Part shown: positions 2 through 25,027 of the stretch, piece after piece
How the letters are laid out: each line of letters starts with the position of its first letter
Position numbering within the stretch: the stretch's first letter is position 1
Assembly: GCA_910584085.1 (NCBI GenBank)
Contig: CAJTZY010000002.1
Span: 61,043 to 125,042, forward strand
DNA: 64,000 nucleotides
Source of the DNA: an uncultured Bacilli bacterium
GTDB lineage: Bacteria; Bacillota_I; Bacilli_A; RF39; UBA660
Reading direction: 5' to 3'
Translations under genes and position numbers: made by a program
Notes under the pieces: model-generated
What the model was told of the DNA's origin: nothing
The model's input: the letters and a program-made list of their open reading frames with translations, nothing else
Database searches by the model: none

Positions 2-1324
2 AGTGGAGGGTTAGATAATATAATTGAATATATTAATAACTTTAGATTTAGTGATGAAGATATAGAATATTTAAGAAGTTTAGGAAACTTTAGTGAAGAA
101 TTTTTAAGATACTTAAGAGATTTAAGATTTACTGGTGATATATACGCTATACCTGATGGAACACCAGTGTTTCCAAATGAACCAGTAATAACAGTAAAAG
201 CAAATGTAATAGAGGCACAATTACTTGAGACTGCACTCTTAGCTTATTTCAATCATGGCACACTTGTAACAACAGCTTCTAAAAGAATAACAAATGCCGC
301 AAAAGGTAGACCAGTATCTGAATTTGGTCCTAGACGTGCTCCAGGAGCTCCTTCAGCAATTGAGGTAAGTAAATATGCATATATAGGTGGATGTGTTGGT
401 ACAAGTAATGTAATGAGTGGTAAAAAATATGGTATACCTGTAATGGGAACAATGGCACACAGTATGATTTGTGATGATGATAGTGAATATGATGCATTCC
501 TAAATTATGCTGAAAGTAATCCGGATAACTGTGTATTCTTAGTAGATACATTTGATACTTTAAGAAGTGGAATTCCTAATGCAATTCGAGTTATCAAAAA
601 AACTGGTTATAAGTTTAAAGGAATTAGAATTGACAGTGGAAATCTTGTATCACTTTCAAAAAAAGCAAGAATTATGCTAGATGAAGCAGGATTCGCTGAT
701 ACAAAAATATGTGTATCGAATGGTTTAGATGAAAGAAAAGTTATGGATTTACTTAGTCAAGGCGCTCCTATAGATTCATTTGGTATAGGTGATAATATCG
801 CTTCTCCTAAAGAACTTGTAGGTGGAGTTTATAAATTAGTTGCTATAGAAAAAAACGGAGAATTAATACCTAAAATAAAAGTAAGTGAGGATACTATTAA
901 AACTATTAATCCAGGGTATAAAAAGGTATATAGATTTTATGATAAAACTACTGGTTATGCACTTGGTGATGTAATCGCTTTAGCAGAAGAAAAAATACCA
1001 AAAGATAAATATACATTAATCTCACCAACAGATGAATGGAAGATGACAACTATTACTAATTATGAAGTAAGAGAACTACAAGTACCAATATTTAAAGATG
1101 GAAAACAAGTTTATAATGTTCCTACAGTGCGTGTTAGTCGTGATTATTGCTTTAAAGAATTTGAAACTTTATATCCAGAAATTAAAAGATCAGAAAATCC
1201 ACATGGATACTATGTAGATTTAACTAAAAAGTTGTTGAACTTAAAGAAGGAATTAATTTTATCAATTAGAGAACAAATAGATGAAGATTCAAAAAATCCT
1301 GAACTAAGTCTAAGGAGAAAATAA
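2..1324 (+). CDS. pncB: nicotinate phosphoribosyltransferase, 5' end truncated by window edge
   Basis: Open in frame from nt 2 with no stop before the ORF-track ATG at 167. Upstream translation ...FTGDIYAIPDGTPVFPNEP continues the NAPRTase N-domain, and the sequence matches the NAPRTase family along its length. Confidence 0.85.
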   Translation, partial: SGGLDNIIEYINNFRFSDEDIEYLRSLGNFSEEFLRYLRDLRFTGDIYAIPDGTPVFPNEPVITVKANVIEAQLLETALLAYFNHGTLVTTASKRITNAAKGRPVSEFGPRRAPGAPSAIEVSKYAYIGGCVGTSNVMSGKKYGIPVMGTMAHSMICDDDSEYDAFLNYAESNPDNCVFLVDTFDTLRSGIPNAIRVIKKTGYKFKGIRIDSGNLVSLSKKARIMLDEAGFADTKICVSNGLDERKVMDLLSQGAPIDSFGIGDNIASPKELVGGVYKLVAIEKNGELIPKIKVSEDTIKTINPGYKKVYRFYDKTTGYALGDVIALAEEKIPKDKYTLISPTDEWKMTTITNYEVRELQVPIFKDGKQVYNVPTVRVSRDYCFKEFETLYPEIKRSENPHGYYVDLTKKLLNLKKELILSIREQIDEDSKNPELSLRRK

Positions 1325-1326
1325 GC

Positions 1327-1932
1327 ATGATAAGAAAAGAAAAATTAGAAGAATTAAAATCTATTATAGAAAACTTGAAAACAATTGAGGTTATAAAAAG
1401 GGATATAGATCAGGAAGATAAATTTATCCAAAGTGATGCATATTATTTTAAATTAAATAATGGTATAACAATTCCAAGAGAAAAATTAACAAAAGGTAAA
1501 GATAAGAAAGATGGAAGTGCAGCTATTATAATGCCTATTGTTGGAGATGAAGTTTTAACAGTTATAGAACCTAGAGTTTTTACGGAACTTACGGTCGGAA
1601 TAGGATTTCCTGCAGGTTATATTGAAAATGGTGAGAAAGCTCGTGTAGGTGCTTTAAGAGAATTAAAAGAAGAAACAGGATATGCACCATCCGATATGAT
1701 AGAAATGGATTCATTTTACCAAGATGAGGGATGTAGTAGTGCTTTAAACCGTATATATTTAGCTCTAGACTGTAAAAAAGTAAGTGGCCAAAAGCTTGAT
1801 AAAGATGAAGTAGTTAAATATATGTTATTTAAATATGATGAATTATTTGAATTAGAACGCCTTGGATATATAAAAGGTAGTAATTCAAAACTTGCTTTAG
1901 AAAAATCTAAAGTATATATGAAAGGAAGATAA
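1327..1932 (+). CDS. NUDIX hydrolase, likely ADP-ribose pyrophosphatase
   Basis: Nudix box GYIENGEKARVGALRELKEETGY (Gx5Ex7REUxEExGU). Only 2 nt from the pncB stop, in the NAD operon. Confidence 0.8.
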   Translation: MIRKEKLEELKSIIENLKTIEVIKRDIDQEDKFIQSDAYYFKLNNGITIPREKLTKGKDKKDGSAAIIMPIVGDEVLTVIEPRVFTELTVGIGFPAGYIENGEKARVGALRELKEETGYAPSDMIEMDSFYQDEGCSSALNRIYLALDCKKVSGQKLDKDEVVKYMLFKYDELFELERLGYIKGSNSKLALEKSKVYMKGR

Positions 1933-1933
1933 T

Positions 1934-2695
1934 ATGAAAAATTTTAATGCTGAAAAAGAGGCAAATAATGTTATAGAATTTATTAGAGATTACTATAAAA
2001 AAAATAATTTAGGGGGAGCAATTATTGGTATATCTGGTGGTAAAGATTCTGGCGTAGTTGCAGGTCTTTTCGCTAAAGCTTTAGGGCCAGATAATTTAAT
2101 AGGTGTAACACTTCCATGCCACTCTAAAACTGAAGATAAGTGTGATGCTAAACTTGTAAGTGATTATTATGGATTTGAATTAATCAACTTTGATATTACA
2201 AATACATTTGATACATTTAAAGATGAATTAAAAAAATTAGGTGAATACGATGATGAACAAACAAAAAATAGTGATATAAATTTAAAACCAAGACTTAGAA
2301 TGGCAACACTTTATTACTTAGCTGCTTTATATTCTAGTTTAAAAGGAAAAACTTATTTAGTTGCAGGTACAAGTAATAAATGTGAACTATATGTTGGATA
2401 TTTTACAAAAGGTGGAGATTCAGTACATGATATCTCACCAATAGCTGATTTCACAGTTGAAGAAGTAATTAAAATAGGAGAATATTTGGGCGTTCCAGAA
2501 CAAGTTTTATATAAAAAACCAAATGATGGACTTTCTAATCAAACAGATGAAGAAAAGTTGGGTGTTAAATATAGTGAGATAGCAGATTATATGGAAGATG
2601 AAAATTTAGTAGATGAAAATGTAAGAGAAAAAATTAGAAAATTACACAAAAATAATTTACACAAATTTAATATTCCAACTTACAGAAGGGATTAA
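1934..2695 (+). CDS. nadE: NH3-dependent NAD+ synthetase
   Basis: PP-loop SGGxDS (GISGGKDSGVV). Length and overall similarity fit NadE. Confidence 0.9.
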   Translation: MKNFNAEKEANNVIEFIRDYYKKNNLGGAIIGISGGKDSGVVAGLFAKALGPDNLIGVTLPCHSKTEDKCDAKLVSDYYGFELINFDITNTFDTFKDELKKLGEYDDEQTKNSDINLKPRLRMATLYYLAALYSSLKGKTYLVAGTSNKCELYVGYFTKGGDSVHDISPIADFTVEEVIKIGEYLGVPEQVLYKKPNDGLSNQTDEEKLGVKYSEIADYMEDENLVDENVREKIRKLHKNNLHKFNIPTYRRD

Positions 2696-2696
2696 T

Positions 2697-3063
2697 ATGG
2701 TTGAAAATATAGAAATTAAATCAAGAGAATTAAAACAATTATTAATAGATTATTATAAAAATAAAACTAAAAGATGAAAGTGCTAAAATAACTTTTACAA
2801 CTCGCGAAGAACTTGTAGGATTTTATGAAAGTAAGAGTATAGTCACAAGAATAAAATTAAAACAAAATATGAGTTTGGGAAGTCAAGTTATTAGTAAAGA
2901 AAGAGAAATAAATGAAGAAGAACTAAAAGATGTATTAAATGAATTGTTAATGGAAAAGGATTATGAAGTTATAAATTTATTTCTTGATAATGAAAAACAA
3001 TATGTAGGTTACTATGGAGATGTTAGCTATTCTTTTTCTGGAGTAAACTTAGATGTTAAATAA
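2697..3063 (+). pseudogene. small conserved-hypothetical gene split by a +1 frameshift in an A4 run near nt 2769-2777
   Basis: The ATG at 2697 overlaps the nadE stop and reads MVENIEIKSRELKQLLIDYYKNKTKR then stops. The +1 frame continues without a gap: KDESAKITFTTREELVGFYESKSIVTRIKLKQNMSLGSQVISKERE...VNLDVK, the latter part being the track ORF 2869-3063. Deleting one A restores a roughly 121-aa ORF. Confidence 0.45.
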
Positions 3064-3096
3064 AGACAAAAACAAAAAGTAAGATAGGAGTGTAGT

Positions 3097-3678
3097 ATGA
3101 AGATAGGTATATTTGGAGGTTGTTTTAACCCACCACATAAAATGCATAAAAATATTCCACTTGAATTAATCAATAATGAATATTTAGATAAGGTCATTTA
3201 TGTACCAACAGGGGATAGTTATAACAAGAAAGATTTAACTTCTTTTGAAACTAGATATAATATGGTACGTTTAATGATTTCAGATAATAAAAATTTATTA
3301 GTATCAGATATTGGAAATAAATCTTATGGATATACCTATCAAGTACTAGATTACTTTAAGGGTATATATAAACAAGATGATATATATTTTATATGTGGAA
3401 GTGATAATTTAAAATCATTTGATACATGGAAAAATTATGAATATATATTAGAGAATTATAAATTACTTGTTATTAAAAGAAATAATGATAATATAGATCA
3501 TATTATGAAAAAATATGATAAGTATAAGGAAAATATTATTATAAGTAATATAAAAGAAAAGTATTTATCATCTACAATTATTCGTAATAATATTAAAAAT
3601 AATAAAAAAGAAATAGCAAAAAGAGAATTAGATGATAGTGTTTATGAATATATAGAAAGTAAAAATTTATATATTTAG
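3097..3678 (+). CDS. nadD: nicotinate-nucleotide adenylyltransferase
   Basis: N-terminal GGCFNPPHKMH (GxFxPxHxxH nucleotidyltransferase motif). About 190 aa. Confidence 0.85.
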   Translation: MKIGIFGGCFNPPHKMHKNIPLELINNEYLDKVIYVPTGDSYNKKDLTSFETRYNMVRLMISDNKNLLVSDIGNKSYGYTYQVLDYFKGIYKQDDIYFICGSDNLKSFDTWKNYEYILENYKLLVIKRNNDNIDHIMKKYDKYKENIIISNIKEKYLSSTIIRNNIKNNKKEIAKRELDDSVYEYIESKNLYI

Positions 3679-3727: not shown

Positions 3728-4581
3728 GGAAATGTATGGAAATATGTCTTTACTAAAGAAGATATGGTGGCAGAAGCAGTACTATATAAATATGGGAATT
3801 TTTATAAGAGAACTGTAATTTGTTGTAGTGTGATGAGTGGATGTCCTGTTGGATGTAAATTCTGTGGTACAGGTTCTAAGTTTGTTAGAAATCTTACATG
3901 TGAAGAAATAGTTGAACAAATTAATATAGTTTTAAATGATAAAAATTTAATAAATGATATAAATGAAAAATGTGAAAAATTACAATTTATGTTTATGAGT
4001 ATGGGTGAACCTATGCTAAACTGAGATGAGGTTGAAAAAGCAATAGTTGAATTAAATAGAAAGTTTAGTAATGCACAATTACTTTTATCTACTATTGGGT
4101 GTGATAATGATGAAACTTTTTCTAAAATAATTGATTTATCTAAGCGAATAGATAAAATAGGATTACAATTTTCTATTTATAAATCAAATGATGAAGAAAG
4201 AAATGAACTTATACCATTTAAAAAGAAAATGAATTTACAAAACTTAGAGCTGCAGGTATAATATGGTGGAAAGAAACAGGTAGACATCCATTTTTAAATT
4301 ATTGTGTTTATGGAACAAATAACTCAGAAGAAAATTTTATGGAACTAACAAATTTATTCTCACCAGATATATTTAATTTTACATTTAGTGTTGTTTGTTC
4401 ATCTGATGAAAATATGAAAGAAGCTTCATTTAGAAATTTAGAAGTTATTAGAAATTTTCAAAATAAATTTTTAGAAAAGGGATATAATGTAAGAATGTTT
4501 GATCCATCAGGACAAGATGATATAGGTGGTGGATGCGGACAACTTTGGTATGTTCAAAATTGGCTTAAAAAGATGAAGTAG
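3728..4581 (+). pseudogene. decayed RlmN/Cfr-family radical-SAM rRNA methyltransferase, N-terminally truncated with several frameshifts and stops
   Basis: Fragments across three frames: ...AVLYKYGNFYKRTVICCSVMSGCPVGCKFCGTGS (the CxxxCxxC of RlmN/Cfr); ...LLSTIGCDNDETFSKIIDLS; and a C-terminal ...MFDPSGQDDIGGGCGQLWY matching the RlmN/Cfr GxDIxAACGQL end. An intact rlmN lies at 56924-57946. Confidence 0.6.
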
Positions 4582-4595
4582 ATTGGTGAAATTAT

Positions 4596-5162
4596 ATGAG
4601 AGAAAAAATAGCAAATTTTAAAGAAATTATAGAAAGTTACTATAAGAAAACAAATAATAATGATGTAGTATTTGATTTTATGCATATAGTAGTTCATTAT
4701 ACTTATATACATTTAGATAAGCCTATAATAATGTTAAATAAAGATGGAGGCTTTAAGATTGAGAATCGAGATGAAAGGGAATATACTACAGATACTATCT
4801 TTATTCCATTTATAACAAATCCAAAATATTATGAAGAAAACTTTTCGGATGATTTATATCAACAAAAAAGAACGCTATATATACATGATACTATAGATGT
4901 TGGAATAAGTTGTAATTTTAATTATGATGGACTAATTAAAAAAATATATGAAGTAATGCCAAAAGAATGCGAAATAATTAGTGAAAATAAATTAGAAGAA
5001 ATTGCCAGTGAAAATGGTTATGATAGATTTGAATGGAAAATATATGATAAATCTGTTGGACTTCCTGGAGTTGCTTATGGTGGGCCAATGTGGGTTTATG
5101 AAATATATGGTGTGAAGATAAAAGACTATGAATTAAATGAGGATTCAAAAAGATTTAGATAA
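4596..5162 (+). CDS. hypothetical protein
   Basis: 188-aa ORF with an RBS; no recognisable motifs. Confidence 0.5.
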   Translation: MREKIANFKEIIESYYKKTNNNDVVFDFMHIVVHYTYIHLDKPIIMLNKDGGFKIENRDEREYTTDTIFIPFITNPKYYEENFSDDLYQQKRTLYIHDTIDVGISCNFNYDGLIKKIYEVMPKECEIISENKLEEIASENGYDRFEWKIYDKSVGLPGVAYGGPMWVYEIYGVKIKDYELNEDSKRFR

Positions 5163-5175
5163 AAGAAGCTACTAA

Positions 5176-5204
5176 TTGACATTAATGTTTAAAAGCAATA
5201 TAAT
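5176..5204 (+). promoter_or_regulatory. near-consensus sigma-A promoter: TTGACA, 17-nt spacer, TATAAT
   Basis: TTGACA at 5176-5181, an exact 17-nt spacer, TATAAT at 5199-5204. It lies 30 nt upstream of the AAGGAGG RBS and ATG of the 5235 ORF. Confidence 0.7.
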
Positions 5205-5234
5205 AGACATTACGAATTTATTAAGGAGGTTTTT

Positions 5235-5729
5235 ATGGAAAATTGTGAAATATATAAATTTGTAAAAAAAATAATAACGAATGGTGTACAAAAAAATTTA
5301 TCACATAATAAAATTATAGAAGGAATTGATAAATATATTGATTTACTACAGGAACAGGGATTAATAGATAGTGAATATTATAAGTTTATAAAAGTATTTG
5401 AAAGATATCTTGAATTAATTACTGAAAAGAGAATGAGTGTAGATTATGTGTATAATCTTGTTAAAAAGGCAGGTTCTACTGAATTTACTTCAAACAAAAA
5501 TGTTAATATAAGTAATAATACAAGTAACAATACAACTGATAATATAAATACTCGTTCACCAATTATGGGGAGCTGTCCTAGAGAAGCTTCTTTACCTAAT
5601 CCATGTCATAGTTCAAGTTATTCAACTAGTTCATGTCATAGTGACAACTATTCGTCAAATGCCTGTTCAAGAGAAATTCAAAAAACTTATGGTGGATGTT
5701 CTTCTAGCCGTGGTAGTAGTAGATGTTAA
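5235..5729 (+). CDS. Cys/Ser-rich tail protein, candidate radical-SAM substrate (precursor-like)
   Basis: About 85 aa of helical N-domain, then an Asn/Ser/Thr-rich linker (NKNVNISNNTSNNTTDNINT), then the C-terminal tail SPIMGSCPREASLPNPCHSSSYSTSSCHSDNYSSNACSREIQKTYGGCSSSRGSSRC with 6 Cys. Two radical-SAM genes follow immediately. Confidence 0.55.
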   Translation: MENCEIYKFVKKIITNGVQKNLSHNKIIEGIDKYIDLLQEQGLIDSEYYKFIKVFERYLELITEKRMSVDYVYNLVKKAGSTEFTSNKNVNISNNTSNNTTDNINTRSPIMGSCPREASLPNPCHSSSYSTSSCHSDNYSSNACSREIQKTYGGCSSSRGSSRC

Positions 5730-5753
5730 AATATTATAAATGAGGTCTTAATA

Positions 5754-7034
5754 TTGGATAAAATATTTAATAAGGCAGAAAATAGTTTATATGCAAATAC
5801 ATCTTATCCTCTTGATAAAAGTAATTGGGAAGAATATAGGATAAAAGATGATACTTTATTTAAAGATGAATCTGATTTAAGTTTATATATTCATATTCCG
5901 TTTTGTAATAAATTGTGTTCGTTTTGCGAGTACATTAAATTTAAAAAGGAAGATAATGAATATGAGAATAAATATCTTGATATATTAGAAGATGATGTAA
6001 ATAATTTTTTAAATACTAATGCATTTAGATTATATGGATTTGATATAGGAGGAGGAACTCCAACATCACTGAGTTTATATAATTTTAAAAGATTAATGTC
6101 TATAGCCACAAAAATAAATAATATAAAAAATAAAGTTGATGATTATGAACCAAGTATAGAAGCTACATTTGATACTATTGATGAGGAAAAAGTTAAATTA
6201 ATAAAAAATGCTGGTTTTAAAAGAATTTCATTTGGTATTCAAACAACCAATACTAAAATACTTACATGTCAAAATAGAAATGTAGTAACACTTGATAAAA
6301 TGATTTCAGTGTTTAAAATGTTAAGAGAAAATAATATTGAAAAAATAAATGTAGATTTTATGTATGGAATAGTTGGGCAAACATTAGATGATATTAAAAC
6401 ATCACTTGAATGTTTAGAAATTTTAAAGCCTGAGCATGTTACTTTATATGAAATGAGATATAATTTAATTAAAAATAAAACATTTATTTCTAAGGATGAT
6501 TTATTTAATCAATATAATCTTATATACATGAGATTAAAGGAATTAGGATATATAGGAAATTTTGGTAGTAATACATTTAGTAAAAAAAATGGTGACTTAG
6601 GTCTATCCTCATACCTAAGATACCGAATGATAAAAAATATATCATATAAGGGATTCGGCATATCTGCGCAATCTAAATCAAAAATTGGTATAAGTTATAA
6701 TATAGGTAAAAATCATGAAAGTATAGAAGATTGTTTCAAGGAAAATACATTTTATGCAGATGATATATATTTACTTCCAAAAGAAGAATTAGTGGCTAAG
6801 TATGTTATGATTAGTTTATATTATGGTCAATTTGATTTAGATATAATGAGTGAAATATTAGACTGTGATGCATTTAACTATTATAAAAATGAGTTTTATT
6901 ATTTAATTAATAATAATTATATAAAAGTGGATAAAAATAAAGTAAATGTTACACAAAAAGGGTTTAAGTATTATGGCGCTATAGGTTCACTATTTTATTC
7001 TAAAAAAGTAAGAAAATGGTTTATGGGGGATTAA
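5754..7034 (+). CDS. HemN/HemW-like (class C-type) radical SAM enzyme
   Basis: LYIHIPFCNKLCSFCEY (CxxxCxxC in the HemN-type context) plus the FDIGGGTPT motif. TTG start 7 nt after a GAGGT RBS. 426 aa. Confidence 0.7.
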   Translation: MDKIFNKAENSLYANTSYPLDKSNWEEYRIKDDTLFKDESDLSLYIHIPFCNKLCSFCEYIKFKKEDNEYENKYLDILEDDVNNFLNTNAFRLYGFDIGGGTPTSLSLYNFKRLMSIATKINNIKNKVDDYEPSIEATFDTIDEEKVKLIKNAGFKRISFGIQTTNTKILTCQNRNVVTLDKMISVFKMLRENNIEKINVDFMYGIVGQTLDDIKTSLECLEILKPEHVTLYEMRYNLIKNKTFISKDDLFNQYNLIYMRLKELGYIGNFGSNTFSKKNGDLGLSSYLRYRMIKNISYKGFGISAQSKSKIGISYNIGKNHESIEDCFKENTFYADDIYLLPKEELVAKYVMISLYYGQFDLDIMSEILDCDAFNYYKNEFYYLINNNYIKVDKNKVNVTQKGFKYYGAIGSLFYSKKVRKWFMGD

Positions 7035-7035
7035 T

Positions 7036-7938
7036 ATGTATGAAACAATAGAAATATTTGGTCAAAAGGTAGATATACGAAATAATAATTGTACTAGATG
7101 TGGTGAAATTCCTACTAGAACTCCAATGAAATTAAACTTATATATTAAATTAACTGATATGTGTAATGCAAAGTGTGAAATGTGTAGCAATAGAGGAAAT
7201 GAAAAAACAAGTAAATTAGATTTAGAAAAATTAAAAATGGTAGTAAAATACTTGGATAATAGAAATTTAATAAATCGAATCGGAATAACAGGTGGAGAGC
7301 CAATGTTAAATATGAGTAAATTAAATGATTTACTTAATATTATATTTGATGTAAAAAAAGATGCTATGGTTACAATTAATACTAATGGATTTAATATAAA
7401 AAATATTTTATATTTAGATAGTATAGATAAAGTAAATGGTATTCATATAAGTAGACATCATTACGATGATGAAATAAATAATGATTTCTTTGGAATATCA
7501 ACAGTAACTAATAGTGATATTGAATATATGATGAATAAATTAGATAATAAAAAATTGTTAAGATTAAATTGTTTATTAATGAAAAACTATATTAATAATA
7601 TTAAGGAGGTTTCTAATTATTTGGAAACAGCTGCTAACTTAGGTATTTTTAGGGTAGGTTTTGTTTCATTAATGAGGGTAAATGATTTTTCAAAAGAAAA
7701 CTTTATAAATTTTAATGATATATTTAGAGACTTACCATCAAATTACTGTAAGACAGATAAATTAAATGATTTAAATATATGTGAGTGTGAAAATGGTGTT
7801 TACTTATCTAATAATGGAGATATTGTTGAATACTATGCTAGGATGACAAAGGAATTAAACTGTGAGTATGCAAGACAATTTGTCTATACATCAGATAATA
7901 AATTAACAGTTGGTTTTAATAAAAAATCATTAATATAA
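7036..7938 (+). CDS. small radical SAM enzyme (about 300 aa, no evident SPASM domain)
   Basis: LTDMCNAKCEMC (CxxxCxxC) and GITGGEPML. Its start is 1 nt after the preceding stop, which suggests translational coupling. Confidence 0.7.
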   Translation: MYETIEIFGQKVDIRNNNCTRCGEIPTRTPMKLNLYIKLTDMCNAKCEMCSNRGNEKTSKLDLEKLKMVVKYLDNRNLINRIGITGGEPMLNMSKLNDLLNIIFDVKKDAMVTINTNGFNIKNILYLDSIDKVNGIHISRHHYDDEINNDFFGISTVTNSDIEYMMNKLDNKKLLRLNCLLMKNYINNIKEVSNYLETAANLGIFRVGFVSLMRVNDFSKENFINFNDIFRDLPSNYCKTDKLNDLNICECENGVYLSNNGDIVEYYARMTKELNCEYARQFVYTSDNKLTVGFNKKSLI

Positions 7939-8063
7939 GGATAGTGTGAAATATGAAAAGAGTAATAGAAAAATTAAGGGAAATCTATTGCAAAATAATA
8001 AATTTGTAGTATAATATTTGAAATTCAATTGATTTGAATTAAGTATATATAAGGAGGCATACT

Positions 8064-8711
8064 ATGCAAGATAAATTTTTAGAGAGTATAAAAAGAGGGT
8101 TTATAAGTCAAATAGAAGAAATAATTAGTGAATCATCTACAAAAGCTAAAACAGATAATTTAAATGCAATAGATACATTAATATTAATTAATACTAGCAT
8201 TGAAGAATGGATAAAATCAGTAAATGTAAGTTTTAATGTTGATGATGAATTATTAAATGAAGTTGCTAAGCTTAAGATTCCATATGTAACTGCTGCAAAG
8301 AAAGAGGCAGCTCAAAATATTTCAAAAATTATAACAGAATCATCAGGAAATGTGACTGAAGAAATTAGTAATTATATTAACGGTTTAAAAGGTAAAGGAA
8401 TTGATTTAGATAATCAAAAATTAAATATTTCAATGAATAAAACAAATAATGATTCAAATAAAAGTTCTAAGTTAGAAAACGATAAAATAACATCAATGCC
8501 ATTAGTACACACTCATCAAGGATTTGGACTAACGAATTCTGATGATGATTATGATGATTATGATGATACATTATTTGGAAGAAGAACATTTGGAAGAAAT
8601 AGTTATAATGATGAAACGGAATCTAGACAAAAACAAAAGAGAAAAGAACCTGAATATGAGGATTTCTATTCTTGTGGTGGCGGCGGTGGAGGCTGCGAAG
8701 GCGGTAGATAA
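8064..8711 (+). CDS. hypothetical protein with an acidic low-complexity region and a C-terminal CGGGGGGC tail
   Basis: Its own TTGCAA-N16-TATAAT promoter (about 7990-8017) and a strong RBS. The tail ...EYEDFYSCGGGGGGCEGGR uses GC-rich Gly codons that are atypical for this genome. Confidence 0.55.
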   Translation: MQDKFLESIKRGFISQIEEIISESSTKAKTDNLNAIDTLILINTSIEEWIKSVNVSFNVDDELLNEVAKLKIPYVTAAKKEAAQNISKIITESSGNVTEEISNYINGLKGKGIDLDNQKLNISMNKTNNDSNKSSKLENDKITSMPLVHTHQGFGLTNSDDDYDDYDDTLFGRRTFGRNSYNDETESRQKQKRKEPEYEDFYSCGGGGGGCEGGR

Positions 8712-8743
8712 TCGCCTTTTAATTTAAAGGGGGCATATTTATA

Positions 8744-9283
8744 ATGAATGAAAAACTAATTGAAAAATCTATTTATGAATTATTAATAGCGTTAGGAGAA
8801 AATCCAAATAGAGATGGTTTAAAAGAAACACCTAAAAGGGTTGCTAAAATGTATTCTGAAATTTTAAATTATCCAGAATTTAACTATACTGCATTTGAGA
8901 ATAAATATGATGATTTGGTTATTGTAAAGAATATTGAATTTTGTTCAATGTGTGAACATCACTTAATGCCATTTTATGGTGTTGCGCATATAGCATACAT
9001 TCCAAATCATAAAATTATAGGGTTAAGCAAACTTGCAAGAGTTGTTGAGAAACATGCAAGAAGACTACAAGTTCAAGAGAGAATGACAGAAGATATTTTT
9101 AATGACTTAAAGGAAAATCTTAATACTGCAAATATTGCAATTTATATTGAGGCCAAGCATATGTGTATGATTGCCAGAGGCGTAAAAAAGGAACTAACTA
9201 GTACAGTTACTGTAAAATTAGATGGTGAATTTAAAAGTAACAAAAAAAACGATTTTTACTTTCTGATTGGCAAGGGGATTTAA
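8744..9283 (+). CDS. folE: GTP cyclohydrolase I
   Basis: FCSMCEHHLMPFYG...GLSKLARVVE, the FolE zinc-site and active-site signature. 179 aa. Confidence 0.9.
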   Translation: MNEKLIEKSIYELLIALGENPNRDGLKETPKRVAKMYSEILNYPEFNYTAFENKYDDLVIVKNIEFCSMCEHHLMPFYGVAHIAYIPNHKIIGLSKLARVVEKHARRLQVQERMTEDIFNDLKENLNTANIAIYIEAKHMCMIARGVKKELTSTVTVKLDGEFKSNKKNDFYFLIGKGI

Positions 9284-9284
9284 A

Positions 9285-10262
9285 ATGAATTATGAACAAT
9301 ATATGGAAATTGCTTTAAAAGAAGCAGAAAAAGGTGTTCAATTAGGGGAACAACCATATGGGGCTGTATTAGTTGCTGATGGTAAAATTGTTTCTGCCGC
9401 ACACAATGAAGTAATATCATCAAGAAATTATTTAAATCATTCAGAGATAGTAGCAATAAACAAGTATTTAGGGACTATGCAAAGTAAACCAAAAGATTTA
9501 ACTTTGGTTACTACTTGTGAACCTTGTGTAAAGTGCTTTGGAACTGCAATCAAATTAGGTGTAAATAGATTTGTTTATGGCTCAAGTCTAGAAACAGCGA
9601 TTGGTTATGGTTCAAACGACATTAATCTATGTCTTGATGATTTTAAATCAATATATAATATTGAAATTATTGGTGGTGTTCTTAAAGATAAATGTGATAT
9701 GTTGCTAGAACGCTTTTATTTAAGAGATAATATTGTTACATACTCTAGTGGAAATAATGAAGAAATTTTTTGGATGAATAAGGCCTTAGAAATAGGAAAA
9801 AGTGGTATGATTGAAAAAGGAGAATTACCAATAGGTGTTATTTTAGTAGCGGGTAAAAGGATATTAAGTAAGACTTGTACAATGACATATACACTTAATT
9901 CTCCTATTACGCATGGCGATTTTATGGCATTATATGATGCCCAAAGAGAAGTATATTCGGTAAATTGTGAAAGACCCCTAGTTTTATATAGTACACTTGA
10001 ACCGCATTTATTAGGTTTTGGAGCAGCAATAAAATGTAAAGTTGATAAGGTTGTTTTCGGTCTTGAAGCAATACCTGATGGAGGTTCTTGCTATTTACCA
10101 TATATAGTTGGAATTAAGGAAAGAATACCAAAAGTAGTTGGTGGTGTTTTAAGAGAAAATCAATATAAATTGATGAAAGAATTTTTAGCTACACATGATG
10201 AAAATCGCGTTGGATATGCATATGCAAAAAAGCTTGTTAAGTTATATGAAAGTGAGAAATAG
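9285..10262 (+). CDS. tandem cytidine/deoxycytidylate-deaminase-fold protein (active TadA/GuaD-like N-domain plus degenerate second domain)
   Basis: N-domain carries HSE...CEPCVKC (H[AS]E and PCxxC zinc motifs). The C-domain has TLEPH...AAIKC in place of the zinc ligands. Start moved to ATG 9285, which has a GGGGA RBS; the ORF-track start at 9267 lies inside folE. Confidence 0.7.
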   Translation: MNYEQYMEIALKEAEKGVQLGEQPYGAVLVADGKIVSAAHNEVISSRNYLNHSEIVAINKYLGTMQSKPKDLTLVTTCEPCVKCFGTAIKLGVNRFVYGSSLETAIGYGSNDINLCLDDFKSIYNIEIIGGVLKDKCDMLLERFYLRDNIVTYSSGNNEEIFWMNKALEIGKSGMIEKGELPIGVILVAGKRILSKTCTMTYTLNSPITHGDFMALYDAQREVYSVNCERPLVLYSTLEPHLLGFGAAIKCKVDKVVFGLEAIPDGGSCYLPYIVGIKERIPKVVGGVLRENQYKLMKEFLATHDENRVGYAYAKKLVKLYESEK

Positions 10263-10267
10263 GTACT

Positions 10268-10882
10268 ATGGATTTTGATTATTTTTATTCTAAACAGAAA
10301 AATTATTTTGGTGAAGAGCCATCTGATGGACTTGTTGAAATGATAGAGAAATATAATGTAAATATTGGTAGTGCGTTAGATATTGGTGCTGGTGAAGGAA
10401 GAAATTCAATTTATCTTGCAAAGCTTGGTTTTAATGTAACTTCCATAGAGCCAACGAAAGATGGATCTAATAAAATTATAGAAAAATCAAAAAAATTAGG
10501 TTTGAATATTAATGTATTAAACTGTGATTATCTTTCAGAAAGTTTAAATAAGGAATATGATTTTATTATTGCTGGAACCTCTCTTGATCATATGGAGAAG
10601 GAATATCTAGATTTAGCAATAAATAAATTGAAAAATAGTCTAAAGGATAAGGGCGTAGTATATATTGTTGTATTTACTAAGGATGATCCTGGTTATTTAA
10701 AACAATATAATACTGCTAGTGAATGTTCAACATTTATTAATCATTATTTTTCACATAATGAGTTAAAAAATTATTTTAATGATTTTGAAATTCTATTTTA
10801 TAATGAATATATAAAACCAGATAACACACATGGAACGCCACATGTTCATGGTAAAGCAAAATTAATAGCAAGGAAAAAATAA
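10268..10882 (+). CDS. class I SAM-dependent methyltransferase (TehB-like)
   Basis: LDIGAGEGRNSIYLAKLG (motif I). About 200 aa. Confidence 0.7.
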   Translation: MDFDYFYSKQKNYFGEEPSDGLVEMIEKYNVNIGSALDIGAGEGRNSIYLAKLGFNVTSIEPTKDGSNKIIEKSKKLGLNINVLNCDYLSESLNKEYDFIIAGTSLDHMEKEYLDLAINKLKNSLKDKGVVYIVVFTKDDPGYLKQYNTASECSTFINHYFSHNELKNYFNDFEILFYNEYIKPDNTHGTPHVHGKAKLIARKK

Positions 10883-10883
10883 T

Positions 10884-11351
10884 ATGGAATATGAAATATT
10901 GCATCAAAAAATTATAGAATTACTTTCTAAAACTAATTATGTTGTACTTGCAACATCAAGCTTAGATGGAGTAGTATCTGCAAGTAAAATGTGTATGATA
11001 TCTAAGGGAACAACTGTTTATTTTCAAACAAGTTTAGGTTTTGAAAAAACAAAAAATATTATGGAAAATCCTAATGTTGCTATTACAATAAACAATATTT
11101 ATTTTAAAGGACAAGCAGCAATTGTAGGCACTCCATCAAGTAATGAATATTTTGTTAATCAAATGAAAATTAAACATTATAAAACATATGAAAATTATAC
11201 TAATCTCCCTAATCAGATTTTAATTGAAGTTAAACTTACTGAATGTAGATTATGGGGAATATGGAATGGTGAAGAGTCAATAAAAATACTAGATTTAAAT
11301 AATAAACAATTAACTAAAATAAAATGTGATAACTTAAAGGGTGGTTATTAA
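10884..11351 (+). CDS. pyridoxamine-5'-phosphate-oxidase-like FMN-binding protein
   Basis: 155 aa with a PNPOx-like split-barrel pattern (YVVLATSSLDGVVSASKM...). Confidence 0.55.
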   Translation: MEYEILHQKIIELLSKTNYVVLATSSLDGVVSASKMCMISKGTTVYFQTSLGFEKTKNIMENPNVAITINNIYFKGQAAIVGTPSSNEYFVNQMKIKHYKTYENYTNLPNQILIEVKLTECRLWGIWNGEESIKILDLNNKQLTKIKCDNLKGGY

Positions 11352-11378
11352 TTTGAAATTAATAAAGGGGATAATAAT

Positions 11379-11843
11379 ATGAAAAGTGTAATAGAAAAAT
11401 TAAAAGAAAAAAATAAAACAATAAGTACAATGGAATCTTGTACTGGTGGGGGTGTTGCAAATAGTATTACTAATATAGAAGGGGCTAGTGAAGTACTTAA
11501 ATTTAGTGCTGTTACATACTCTAATGAATTTAAAATTAAAATGGGTGTAAGTAGTGATATTATTGATAAATATAGTGTTTATAGTATGGAAACTGCAATG
11601 GAAATGAGCAAAAATATAAGTAAATTTACAGGTTCTAATTATGGAGTAGGTATCACTGGTAAATTAAATAGAGTGGATATTAATAACTTATATGGTAGTG
11701 ATAATACTGTTTATATAAGTATATATGATAGAGATTCTGATAAATTTTATAATAATAAAATAGATGTAGATAAATCAAGCAGAAAAGAAAATAAAGAAAT
11801 AGTAATTAATTTAATTATAGAAAAATTATTAGAAATAGTATAG
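11379..11843 (+). CDS. pncC: CinA C-terminal-domain protein, NMN amidohydrolase (PncC-like)
   Basis: TMESCTGGGVANSIT, the ESCTGG signature of the CinA/PncC deamidase domain. Confidence 0.75.
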   Translation: MKSVIEKLKEKNKTISTMESCTGGGVANSITNIEGASEVLKFSAVTYSNEFKIKMGVSSDIIDKYSVYSMETAMEMSKNISKFTGSNYGVGITGKLNRVDINNLYGSDNTVYISIYDRDSDKFYNNKIDVDKSSRKENKEIVINLIIEKLLEIV

Positions 11844-13409: not shown

Positions 13410-14207
13410 ATGATAAAAAATATAAAGTTATTTATAAATAATAATGATGAATCTATTAAAACAGGAAAACTTATAAGAGATAAGTTTATTAAAAATGGAT
13501 TTATGATATCAGATAAAGTATGTGATTTAGCAGTTGCAATAGGTGGAGATGGAGCATTCCTTAGAATGATAAAAAATACTAATTTTAATAGTGATACATA
13601 TTATGTAGGAATTAATTCTGGAACTCTCGGATTTTTACAAGAGGTTAAAGTAGATGAAATAGATAATTTTATAAATGAATTAAAAAATGAAGATTATAAA
13701 ATAGAAGAAATAGGTATACAAGAGACAACTATTAATCATGAAAATAGTTCATCTAAATTTTATTCATTAAATGAAATTTTAATAAGAGATAAAAATTTAA
13801 AAACGGTTAAATTAGATATAAAAATAGATGGCGATTTACTTGAAAAATTTATAGGAGATGGAATACTTATAGCAAGTTCATCTGGTTCAACTGCTCATAA
13901 TTTAAGTTATGGAGGTAGTATCGTTTATAATACTTTTTCATCACTTCAAATAACTCCAATTGGTCCAATAAATTCTAAAGTATATAGATCACTTTTAAAT
14001 TCAGTAATAATACCAGATAAAAAAGTTATCGATATTATACCTGAGTTAGATAAAAAAGATTTACTAGTAACAATAGATGGTGAAAATAATTATTATGATA
14101 ATGTTAGTAGTATTTCTACTAAAATAGATTCAAAAAAGATAAAATGTTTACGATTAAAACACTATAATTTTCCACAAAAGATAAATGAGAAATTGTTAAC
14201 TGATTAA
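13410..14207 (+). CDS. nadK: NAD+ kinase
   Basis: GGDGAFLRM, NSGTLGFL and DGILIASSSGSTAHNLSYGG, the NAD kinase motifs. Confidence 0.9.
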   Translation: MIKNIKLFINNNDESIKTGKLIRDKFIKNGFMISDKVCDLAVAIGGDGAFLRMIKNTNFNSDTYYVGINSGTLGFLQEVKVDEIDNFINELKNEDYKIEEIGIQETTINHENSSSKFYSLNEILIRDKNLKTVKLDIKIDGDLLEKFIGDGILIASSSGSTAHNLSYGGSIVYNTFSSLQITPIGPINSKVYRSLLNSVIIPDKKVIDIIPELDKKDLLVTIDGENNYYDNVSSISTKIDSKKIKCLRLKHYNFPQKINEKLLTD

Positions 14208-24196: not shown

Positions 24197-25027
24197 ATGA
24201 ATAATGTATATAAATCAGAAGAAGAATTTTTAAAAAATTACAATTCAGATGATTTTGAAAAATTATCTATGACAGCTGATATATTAATATTTAGTGTATC
24301 TAGTGAAGAAAGTGATAATTACAGGAAGACTGATAAAAAGAAAATGAGTATATTACTTGTAAAGAGAAATAATTATCCTTTTAAGGATAAATGGTGCTTG
24401 CCAGGTGGTTTCGTAGATATAAACGAGGATTTAGATGATGCACCTGTTAGAATACTTAAAAGGGAAACTAATATAGATAATATATATCTTGAACAATTAT
24501 ATACATTTGGTGATACTAAAAGGGATCCACGTATGAGAGTTGTATCTACTTCTTATATTGCTCTTATAGATAAAAATAGATTGGATAAGAATATAAGTGG
24601 TGATTCTTCATGGTTTGATATAGCGCTTTTAGAAGAAAAGGATAATATCGTTGATATAGTTTTAGATAATGGCCGTGAAACAATTAAGTTTACTATAGAG
24701 AAGATATTAAGGGAAAAAACTACTGATAGATATTCATTTAAAGTACTTGAAAATAAATCTTTGGCTTTTGATCATCCTATTGTTATATTATCTGGAATAG
24801 AAAGACTAAAGAATAAAATAGAGTATACTGATATAGTATTTAATATGATGCCAGAGTTATTTACTTTAGGTGAACTTCAACAGGTTTATGAAGTAATTCT
24901 TGGTAAAAAATTATTAGATCCAGCTTTTAGAAGAATAATTGCAAATAAAGTTGAGAAAACTAAGAAAATGAAAACAGGTGGAGGACATCGGCCATCCGCA
25001 CTCTTTAAATATAAAAATAATTTATGA
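24197..25027 (+). CDS. nrtR: NrtR-like regulator: degenerate Nudix domain fused to a C-terminal winged helix
   Basis: GGFVDINEDLDDAPVRILKRETN has Gx5E but lacks the canonical RE spacing. C-terminal ...ELFTLGELQQVYEVILGKKLLDPAFRRII resembles the NrtR wHTH. 276 aa. Confidence 0.6.
   Translation: MNNVYKSEEEFLKNYNSDDFEKLSMTADILIFSVSSEESDNYRKTDKKKMSILLVKRNNYPFKDKWCLPGGFVDINEDLDDAPVRILKRETNIDNIYLEQLYTFGDTKRDPRMRVVSTSYIALIDKNRLDKNISGDSSWFDIALLEEKDNIVDIVLDNGRETIKFTIEKILREKTTDRYSFKVLENKSLAFDHPIVILSGIERLKNKIEYTDIVFNMMPELFTLGELQQVYEVILGKKLLDPAFRRIIANKVEKTKKMKTGGGHRPSALFKYKNNL

Follow-up and report, generated by a model that had tools for sequence, protein, structure and literature searches.

A compact radical-SAM enzyme and a partner protein ending in cysteine form a conserved gene unit, often within NAD-salvage operons, in gut and rumen Bacillota

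In the mycofactocin and pyrroloquinoline quinone (PQQ) systems, chemistry targets a residue or two close to the C-terminal end of the precursor, peptidases release the product, and the product serves a primary redox role, not antibiosis. In MoaA, a radical S-adenosylmethionine (radical-SAM) enzyme, an auxiliary cluster held by three cysteines binds the nucleotide substrate, and TbtI is a HemN-like class C radical-SAM enzyme that acts in a pathway for a peptide that is made by ribosomes and modified after translation (RiPP). To our knowledge, the biosynthesis and salvage of nicotinamide adenine dinucleotide (NAD) in bacteria are regarded as fully mapped. Here we describe an operon in a stretch of 64,000 nucleotides (the window) from an uncultured Bacilli bacterium (contig CAJTZY010000002.1, positions 61,043 to 125,042). 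The operon encodes a small protein ending in cysteine, termed the RC protein after the most frequent ending of its family (..R-C), followed by a HemN-like radical-SAM enzyme and a compact radical-SAM enzyme, RS300. The RC protein and RS300 form a conserved gene unit that is carried by about 80 gut and rumen Bacillota genomes, including cultured Butyrivibrio and Eubacterium ruminantium, and that recurs within NAD-salvage operons. The reading that we favour, to which we give about an even chance, is that the two constitute a protein or peptide maturation system in which the terminal Cys is the target of RS300 and the resulting product has a role in NAD/ADP-ribose metabolism.

Operon layout

The operon belongs to a genome of 26% G+C with standard stop codons (an uncultured Bacillota) and comprises the following features.

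5176–5204, plus strand: sigma-70 promoter TTGACA-N17-TATAAT, matching at 12 of 12 positions
5223–5229, plus strand: ribosome-binding site (RBS) AAGGAGG, 5 nt ahead of the ATG at 5235, read from the sequence
5235–5729, plus strand: gene of the RC protein (Cys-ended small protein, 164 aa), an open reading frame (ORF) with stop codon TAA
5235–5486, plus strand: N-terminal four-helix domain, leader-like (residues 1–84), predicted from a single-sequence AlphaFold2 model, homology and the ratio of non-synonymous to synonymous substitution rates (dN/dS)
5487–5726, plus strand: disordered Asn-rich linker and Cys/Ser-rich tail (residues 85–164), predicted from AlphaFold2 confidence (predicted local distance difference test, pLDDT) and comparison of homologues
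5724–5726, plus strand: TGT, encoding the invariant Cys at the C-terminus (..SSRC-COOH), the putative modification site, with TAA next
5754–7034, plus strand: HemN-like radical-SAM gene (426 aa, TTG start), 24 nt past the RC gene
7036–7938, plus strand: RS300, compact radical-SAM gene (300 aa), 1 nt past the HemN-like stop

An earlier note, made from the letters of the window, had described a near-consensus promoter, an AAGGAGG RBS, a 164-residue ORF, and two radical-SAM genes following at spacings of 24 nt and 1 nt; all of these are present at the coordinates that it gave. The promoter is the sole exact TTGACA-17-TATAAT in the 64-kb window, where shuffled sequences give an expectation of 0.07, and promoter-like sites overall are without enrichment across the window (53 seen versus 57 expected). 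The stretch from the promoter to the RBS is unchanged in a related strain (L088). A palindrome over the −35 box, ACATTAATGT, was considered as an operator and rejected, as it is not enriched (10 matches versus 8.9 expected).

Conservation of the gene unit

A scan with an RS300 profile, taking one genome per species, gave 80 more loci, whose ORFs were called and labelled by phmmer. In 77 of the 82 loci, RS300 has an RC-family gene no more than 1.4 kb away, and the remaining five end at a contig edge at that place. Among the loci with both genes, RS300 identity ranges between 99% and 29%, and gene junctions overlap or measure 1 nt. The adjacency of RC homologues to RS300 wherever sequence is available supports the earlier proposal that the genes are a functional unit, and a genome-neighbourhood check for conservation without a Cys-rich neighbour found the neighbour in every such locus.

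It is very improbable, by comparison, that the genes are unlinked and that a low-complexity structural protein lies by chance near a housekeeping HemW/HemN and an unrelated radical-SAM enzyme. The tail of the RC protein is indeed of low complexity, HemW and HemN are among the best matches of the HemN-like enzyme, and a word-indexed homologue search with the 164-residue protein returned a single match, at 94% identity. However, co-occurrence is seen in 77 of the 77 loci where sequence is available, with overlapping or 1-nt junctions; the scores of the HemN-like enzyme to HemW, HemN and HemZ are far below cut-off; and a natural fusion of the HemN-like enzyme and RS300 exists (P0239, 737 aa). The co-occurrence data exclude chance adjacency, and the conclusion that the RC protein is an orphan was wrong, since reading of the neighbourhoods together with a hidden Markov model (HMM) recovered 81 RC homologues.

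The loci fall into the following classes.

Class A (window, L002, L006, L008–L014): RC, then HemN-like, then RS300
Class B (L015, L019–L021, L027, L035, L036, and L023 at a contig edge): RC, then RS300, then HemN-like
Class C (about 20 loci labelled uncultured Bacilli or 'Tenericutes'): RC, then RS300; HemN-like absent
Class D (43 loci of Lachnospiraceae and relatives, with RS300 about 30% identical): HemN-like absent

Two Zn-peptidase genes (PF04298, Zn_peptidase_2) precede most class B loci, though not L035, and L023 is cut at the contig edge. The class D gene set comprises an RC protein of 87–141 aa, an LRR_5 protein, RS300, a DUF2201 metallopeptidase/VWA protein and a MoxR-like ATPase. Butyrivibrio proteoclasticus P6B7, Eubacterium ruminantium FB3002 and Butyrivibrio sp. 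VCB2006 are cultured members of this class. A pair of ABC exporter genes lies upstream in L013, and the ORFs of L011 match it in size and order; no peptidase or exporter gene is present in the window or in the class C loci. Two class C genes initially labelled 'small rSAM' and 'truncated HemN' proved to be PnuC and NadR.

Since the HemN-like gene is missing from classes C and D, the sequence comparison identifies the RC protein and RS300 as the core of the cassette and the HemN-like enzyme as accessory. The HemN-like enzyme, which the earlier note had paired with the Cys-rich substrate, is thus dispensable, although where it occurs it is a physical partner of RS300, as the fusion in P0239 shows.

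As a separate observation, the class D gene set of Lachnospiraceae is seen in L065 (8682–15094) and in about 40 more loci; its LRR_5 protein has a conserved C-terminal domain (..YAKYRLLSIL), and pnuC and nadR often come after the set.

The RC protein family

The RC protein of the window has the architecture first ascribed to it, with an Asn-rich linker and a Cys/Ser-dense tail that holds six Cys among the last 55 residues, and it ends ..GGCSSSRGSSRC, followed by TAA. The single-sequence AlphaFold2 model predicts helices at residues 3–19, 24–40, 46–63 and 69–84 with pLDDT of 70–90, and residues 82–164 have pLDDT below 50. A fold search with the model gave generic helical bundles alone (best E of 0.45) and no specific solved fold, and no Pfam, NCBIfam or PADLOC family covers the protein. 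A spore-coat/YtxC identity was rejected on its scores, which are 20 bits against a cut-off of 33 in Pfam and 16 against 207 in NCBIfam.

Homologues were recognized from gene position and from shared sequence features. The ORFs immediately upstream of the HemN-like genes of L002 and L006 have the same pattern at the N-terminus, carry an IGSC motif and finish in a Cys/Ser tail, which ends ..SGRC or ..GGRSC. An HMM of the RC proteins of classes A–C recovers the proteins of these classes at E of 1e-12 to 1e-39 and reaches those of class D at E of 6e-5 to 0.02; in the ranking of 6638 ORFs, no false positive stands above them. The N-domain is homologous across classes A–D in a profile–profile comparison of the two groups (hhalign probability 96%, E of 4e-9). 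The homologues are 87–202 aa long.

The terminal residue is the most conserved property of the family. Cys is the last residue in 80 of 81 RC homologues, compared with about 0.8% of the other ORFs at the same loci, and Arg or Lys stands at most four residues ahead of it in 77 of the 80, the class D proteins ending mostly in ..G-R-C. The stop codons that follow the terminal Cys (TAA in 44, TGA in 29 and TAG in 8) are not preferentially TGA, so the Cys is the true terminus; read-through past it with selenocysteine is ruled out, the stops being mostly TAA.

Within their last 60 residues, the proteins of classes A–C have from one to seven Cys and 33 of 44 class D proteins have one, and in L012 the terminal Cys is the sole Cys of the protein. 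Because the number varies and the terminal Cys alone is conserved, the six-Cys tail is a lineage-specific elaboration, and the signature of the family is a helical domain together with a free Cys at the C-terminus, close to a basic residue. The emphasis that the earlier note had placed on six Cys as the key feature therefore shifts to the terminal Cys and its basic neighbour, L012 and most class D proteins having a single Cys.

Comparison of the window with strain L088 puts dN/dS at 0.22 in the N-domain, 0.79 in the tail and 0.08 in the HemN-like gene, on few substitutions, and all six tail Cys are kept. These values suggest that the N-domain is under stronger constraint than the tail and may act as a leader-like docking domain.

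In class C RC proteins (for example L022, 9622–9996; L028, 9566–9997), a conserved His/Tyr motif, KHYxHY, immediately precedes the SSSCG stretch of the tail. This motif is missing from the RC protein of the window.

RS300

RS300 matches Radical_SAM and Fer4_12. Its best NCBIfam match is HxsC (TIGR03977; 61.5 bits versus a cut-off of 267.9), followed by MoaA (54.7 versus 284); its scores to viperin and PqqE are 34 (versus 180) and 24 (versus 381). A PADLOC scan found generic radical-SAM similarity to pVip alone (38–40 bits), and no defence-system model fits. The family comprises 212 clusters at 50% identity, recovered at E ≤ 1e-30 among 1.84 billion representatives.

In an alignment of all classes, six Cys are invariant in 81 of 81 sequences, comprising C43, C47 and C50 of the CX3CX2C motif and, in addition, C19, C249 and C251. 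The HISRHHY motif (residues 137–143) is kept in 78–81 of the 81 sequences at each position, and C276 is not conserved. An AlphaFold model computed from the alignment has a pLDDT of 92. The nearest solved folds are MoaA (Foldseek E of 1e-10, template-modelling score of about 0.65, 15–16% identity), SuiB, GDGT-MAS, EpeE/YydG, viperins and SkfB, of which SuiB, EpeE/YydG and SkfB modify peptides, and the sequence-profile matches to Protein Data Bank (PDB) entries agree with this fold search.

The three extra invariant Cys fit an auxiliary Fe–S site with one free position, and their conservation suggests that C19, C249 and C251 hold a [4Fe-4S] cluster with one free iron. By analogy with MoaA and the sactisynthases, we infer that a Cys or carboxylate of the substrate would fill this position. 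The earlier note had described a second radical-SAM enzyme of about 300 aa without a SPASM domain; the lack of a SPASM match stands, whereas the absence of an auxiliary cluster is doubtful in view of the three extra invariant Cys.

The HemN-like enzyme

The HemN-like enzyme carries HIPFCNKLCSFC (CX3CX2C) and GGGTPT and has a Pfam Radical_SAM match. Its NCBIfam scores are all below cut-off, the highest being to STM4012 (NF006067; 166 bits versus 380), followed by HemW (130 versus 205), HemZ (120 versus 321), HemN (113 versus 325) and ChuW (110 versus 400). The STM4012 alignment covers the full length (residues 32–421 to 26–421), and at this score the STM4012 family is a distant relative only. 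Matches in the PDB are to HemN (1olt, 1e-20, HemN residues 49–242) and NocN (9p2u, 3e-15), which bear out the initial description of this gene as HemN/class-C-like. No HemN_C domain was found by Pfam, and neither of the two radical-SAM enzymes reaches the cut-off of a curated family in Pfam, NCBIfam or PADLOC.

The gene adjoins RS300 in classes A and B. One homologue, P0206 (548 aa), has an N-terminal NADAR domain (PF08719), a superfamily tied to NAD and ADP-ribose processing. The pairing of a HemN-like enzyme with a Cys-rich substrate had been put forward as an undescribed class. No description of it was found, but the HemN-like class C enzymes NosN/NocN act in thiopeptide RiPP pathways, so the pairing is less unprecedented than was first said.

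At L004/L005 (8001–13493), a HemN-like gene with 65% identity belongs to an NAD operon that has neither RS300 nor an RC gene. Downstream of it are genes for a 958-aa APH-kinase-like protein, a 152-aa Cys-less protein with SSPKA(P/S)SY repeats and a 270-aa protein.

NAD context

Genes of NAD metabolism lie on both sides of the operon in the window, as listed below.

To 1324, plus strand: pncB, cut by the window start (the upstream NAD genes together, 167–3678; phmmer against L002 and L004 genes)
1327–1932, plus strand: Nudix, ADP-ribose pyrophosphatase-like (phmmer against L002 and L004 genes)
1934–2695, plus strand: nadE (phmmer against L002 and L004 genes)
3097–3678, plus strand: nadD (Pfam, NCBIfam)
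11379–11843, plus strand: cinA/pncC (phmmer label, ORF), with an aminotransferase gene next
13410–14207, plus strand: NAD kinase, nadK (phmmer label, ORF)
24197–25027: nrtR (phmmer label, ORF)

In related loci, the cassette sits inside such gene sets. The order in L002 and L008 is pncA, pncB, Nudix, prs, a small radical-SAM gene, nadD, RC, HemN-like, RS300, ARH-PncC, nrtR and nadK, and that in class C is pncA, pncB, Nudix, nadE/prs, nadD, pnuC, nadR, RC, RS300, (ARH), cinA, nrtR and nadK. The genes in L002, L008 and class C are co-directional with junctions of −6 to +25 nt, and the NadR of class C meets its NCBIfam cut-off. ARH-PncC is immediately downstream of the cassette in L002, L008, L016, L033, L039 and L040. 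Between two and 11 different NAD genes are found within 10 kb in 22 of 38 class A–C loci, and pnuC, nadR or nrtR is present in 22 of 43 class D loci, the typical order being RS300, DUF2201, MoxR, pnuC and nadR. Since the cassette recurs within the NAD operons of related loci, the earlier note's view of it as inserted between nadD and folE does not hold, and it is probably tied to NAD metabolism rather than being an inserted antibiotic cluster.

A 21-bp palindrome, TTATTAAC-N5-GTTAATAA, is repeated in two to three copies in the promoters of cassette-bearing NAD operons (L002, 2355–2431; L008, 3100–3176; L029, 52–167; L024, 1449–1998; L026, 7764–7826; and others). In L026, it lies upstream of a minimal operon, pnuC-nadR-RC-RS300. 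Most NrtR sites are 21-bp palindromes with a lineage-specific consensus and the core GT-N7-AC (Rodionov et al. 2008, PMC2330246), and the symmetry of the palindrome described here agrees with those sites. We provisionally regard it as a candidate NrtR operator of uncultured Bacillota.

In the window, a species-specific block from folE to a PNPOx-like gene stands between the RC operon and cinA. A perfect palindrome, TTATTAATTTGAAATTAATAA, occurs at 11345–11365, 14 nt ahead of cinA; it resembles the box of the NAD operons, and its count in the window is not above chance.

The NAD context also bears on whether the cassette makes an ordinary secreted antimicrobial or signalling RiPP, with the NAD neighbourhood reflecting incidental operon packing in small genomes. 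The layout of a precursor beside radical-SAM genes would suit such a product, as would the ABC exporter pair upstream in L011 and L013, the two Zn-peptidases of class B, the variable tails, which RiPP cores often have, and the strong promoter of the window operon, which lacks the NAD palindrome. Yet the NAD context recurs in distant lineages, in different gene arrangements and at RS300 identities as low as about 30%; a single terminal Cys is all of the 'core' that is conserved; and an exporter, an immunity gene and a leader peptidase are absent from the window and most loci. Many carriers, moreover, are metagenome-assembled genomes of uncultured Bacilli or 'Tenericutes', in which the pair lies between nadR and cinA. 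The recurrent context and the single conserved residue make a secreted RiPP the less likely outcome, and we consider it improbable. The RiPP-type maturation system proposed in the earlier note accordingly survives in part: the unit of a radical-SAM enzyme and a small protein is conserved, whereas a conventional secreted RiPP is disfavoured.

Proposed function

In the favoured maturation system, RS300 would recognize the helical domain of the RC protein and work on its terminal Cys. The terminal thiolate or carboxylate would take the free iron of the auxiliary [4Fe-4S] cluster on C19, C249 and C251, and a 5'-deoxyadenosyl radical would take a hydrogen atom from the terminal residue, leaving an oxidized, decarboxylated or cross-linked Cys-derived end group. 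The HemN-like enzyme of classes A and B may perform a second step, by analogy with its relatives most plausibly the transfer of a one-carbon (methyl or methylene) unit. The attached peptidases, namely the two Zn-peptidases of class B and the DUF2201 protein with the MoxR-like ATPase of class D, would probably release the modified end, and the internal Cys of long tails could act as successive new C-termini or as extra cores. The product might be a cofactor, a metabolite or a control element in NAD/ADP-ribose metabolism, because related cassettes appear to be co-transcribed with NAD-salvage genes under NrtR-type operators.

Several observations weigh against this assignment. RC homologues were found through their adjacency to RS300, and RC genes without this partner would escape. 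RS300 has no SPASM or RRE/PqqD match in Pfam or NCBIfam, and most of the NAD-embedded loci are without a dedicated peptidase or exporter. No NAD gene is nearby in 14 of the 38 class A–C loci, and the 21-bp palindrome does not occur at the window's own promoter at 5176. The core of the palindrome also differs from the GT-N7-AC of most NrtR motifs (PMC2330246), which is why its assignment to NrtR is provisional. In the NAD operon of L004, the HemN-like gene is accompanied by neither RS300 nor an RC gene, which means that the HemN-like enzyme may have a substrate that does not derive from an RC protein. Finally, a role of the terminal Cys as donor, ligand or carrier is equally conceivable, and a nucleotide substrate for RS300 is possible, since its closest folds include the nucleotide enzymes MoaA and viperin.

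The last point leads to a different assignment, in which the target of RS300, and of the HemN-like enzyme in loci that have it, is a pyridine or purine nucleotide from the NAD/ADP-ribose pool. In that case, the RC protein would be a helper and not the substrate, serving as a thiol or hydrogen-atom donor, as a sacrificial or persulfide sulfur donor, or as a carrier with an intermediate bound to its terminal Cys, and long Cys/Ser tails would permit several turnovers. We regard this as possible but rather unlikely. MoaA and viperin/pVip are among the closest solved folds and NCBIfam matches, the context is all nucleotide metabolism (nadR, nadD, cinA, Nudix, ARH and the NADAR fusion), and the class D RC protein has a single Cys ending a charged helix, unlike a typical RiPP core. 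However, the scores to MoaA (55 versus 284 bits) and viperin (34 versus 180 bits) are far below cut-off, peptide-modifying radical-SAM enzymes score equally well, classes B and D include peptidase genes, and the helical domain is conserved in the manner of a leader. The MoaA and viperin folds, together with the peptidases that are missing in most NAD-embedded loci, keep the nucleotide assignment alive.

Returning to a maturation system, a more far-reaching and speculative extension is that, in anaerobic gut Bacillota, the RC protein and RS300 represent a branch of NAD metabolism that is ribosomally templated and was previously unknown; we hold this only tentatively. In one version, the terminal Cys would give rise to a small cofactor or metabolite supplying or supplementing the pyridine-nucleotide pool, a 'vitamin from a protein' in the manner of PQQ or mycofactocin, and the cassette might be what encodes an unassigned anaerobic route. 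In the other, the radical modification would be a switch that sets the activity of salvage through NadR, PnuC and NadD.

The significance of the cassette lies in a conserved radical-SAM enzyme and Cys-ended partner that many uncultured Bacillota of the gut and rumen carry inside their NAD operons. If a peptide-derived molecule or a protein switch does serve NAD homeostasis, it would be a new component of a central pathway, and radical-SAM enzymes would gain a new substrate logic, based on a free C-terminal Cys and a three-Cys auxiliary site of non-SPASM type. A product that is an NAD-related cofactor or switch would form a new category. With two to three genes, a sharply defined target residue and cultured rumen carriers, the system is open to direct testing.

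Neighbouring genes

The earlier note had remarked on a decayed Cfr/RlmN-like gene adjoining the cluster, and such a gene is found at 3764–4581. This radical-SAM gene is broken by an in-frame TGA at 4022–4024 and by a poly-A frameshift at about 4225–4240. It is without the N-terminal domain, and a repaired version scores 95 bits to RlmN versus a cut-off of 290. It was considered as the counterpart of the small radical-SAM gene in the NAD operons of L002 and L004 and rejected, as the two have no similarity. The latter gene, which occupies the corresponding operon position in L002, L004 and L008, encodes a minimal radical-SAM protein of 232–237 aa (CIFNCPFC; L002, 6210–6923; L004, 7173–7871; also L008 and L010), with weak similarity alone, to the TatD-linked and TIGR04100 radical-SAM families.

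Two orphan genes flank the operon. The one at 4596–5162, just upstream of the promoter, encodes a 188-aa protein with no family match, seen only in the same species (L001). The other, at 8064–8711, encodes a 215-aa protein and has a promoter-like site at 7988–8015 and a terminator-like hairpin at 8714–8734. The 215-aa protein has a helical N-terminal part and an Asn/Asp-rich middle, ends ..YSCGGGGGGCEGGR and does not belong to the RC family; its one NCBIfam match is far below cut-off, and no meaningful family was found.

Beyond these genes, the block at 8744–11351 contains folE (8744–9283; Pfam, NCBIfam) and genes for a protein in which two domains are cytidine-deaminase-like, for a TehB-like methyltransferase and for a PNPOx-like protein. 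The block is missing at the equivalent position in all related loci.

Comparison with known systems

The mycofactocin (MftA/MftB/MftC) and PQQ (PqqA/PqqD/PqqE) systems resemble the cassette in having a small ribosomal precursor beside a radical-SAM enzyme. In contrast to their maturases, RS300 is without SPASM and has no PqqD/RRE partner, and it scores 24 bits to PqqE versus the cut-off of 381. The putative RC precursor is also much longer (87–202 aa), has a predicted folded four-helix domain and would be modified at a terminal Cys.

The His-Xaa-Ser system (HxsA–D) likewise combines two radical-SAM genes (HxsB/HxsC) with a low-complexity protein, and HxsC is the best NCBIfam match of RS300. 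However, the partner radical-SAM enzyme here is HemN-like and not HxsB, and the RC protein has an invariant terminal Cys in place of His-Xaa-Ser repeats. None of the Hxs families hxsA, hxsB and hxsD is matched by the scanned neighbouring proteins or the RC protein in NCBIfam. SCIFF/ranthipeptide systems share a Cys-rich C-terminal region beside a radical-SAM enzyme and an occurrence in anaerobic Firmicutes. They differ in that the cassette has no SPASM and no match to a curated precursor, and in that multiple Cys are not conserved in the RC family.

The HemN-like enzyme shares CX3CX2C and GGGTP with the class C radical-SAM methyltransferases (NosN/NocN, TbtI and ChuW/HutW) and with STM4012; unlike these, it is below cut-off throughout, is paired or fused with a MoaA-like compact radical-SAM enzyme, and is found in NAD operons. 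RS300 resembles MoaA and viperin in fold, in its compact size and in three extra Cys that could hold a substrate-binding cluster. Compared with MoaA, its extra Cys are placed otherwise (an N-terminal C19 and a CxC at 249/251), and no molybdopterin genes are near the RS300 locus.

A full-text literature search found no description of the RC/RS300 cassette. The general kind of system, a radical-SAM-modified ribosomal product, is known; new here are the putative precursor family, the maturase subfamily and their unexpected home in an NAD regulon.

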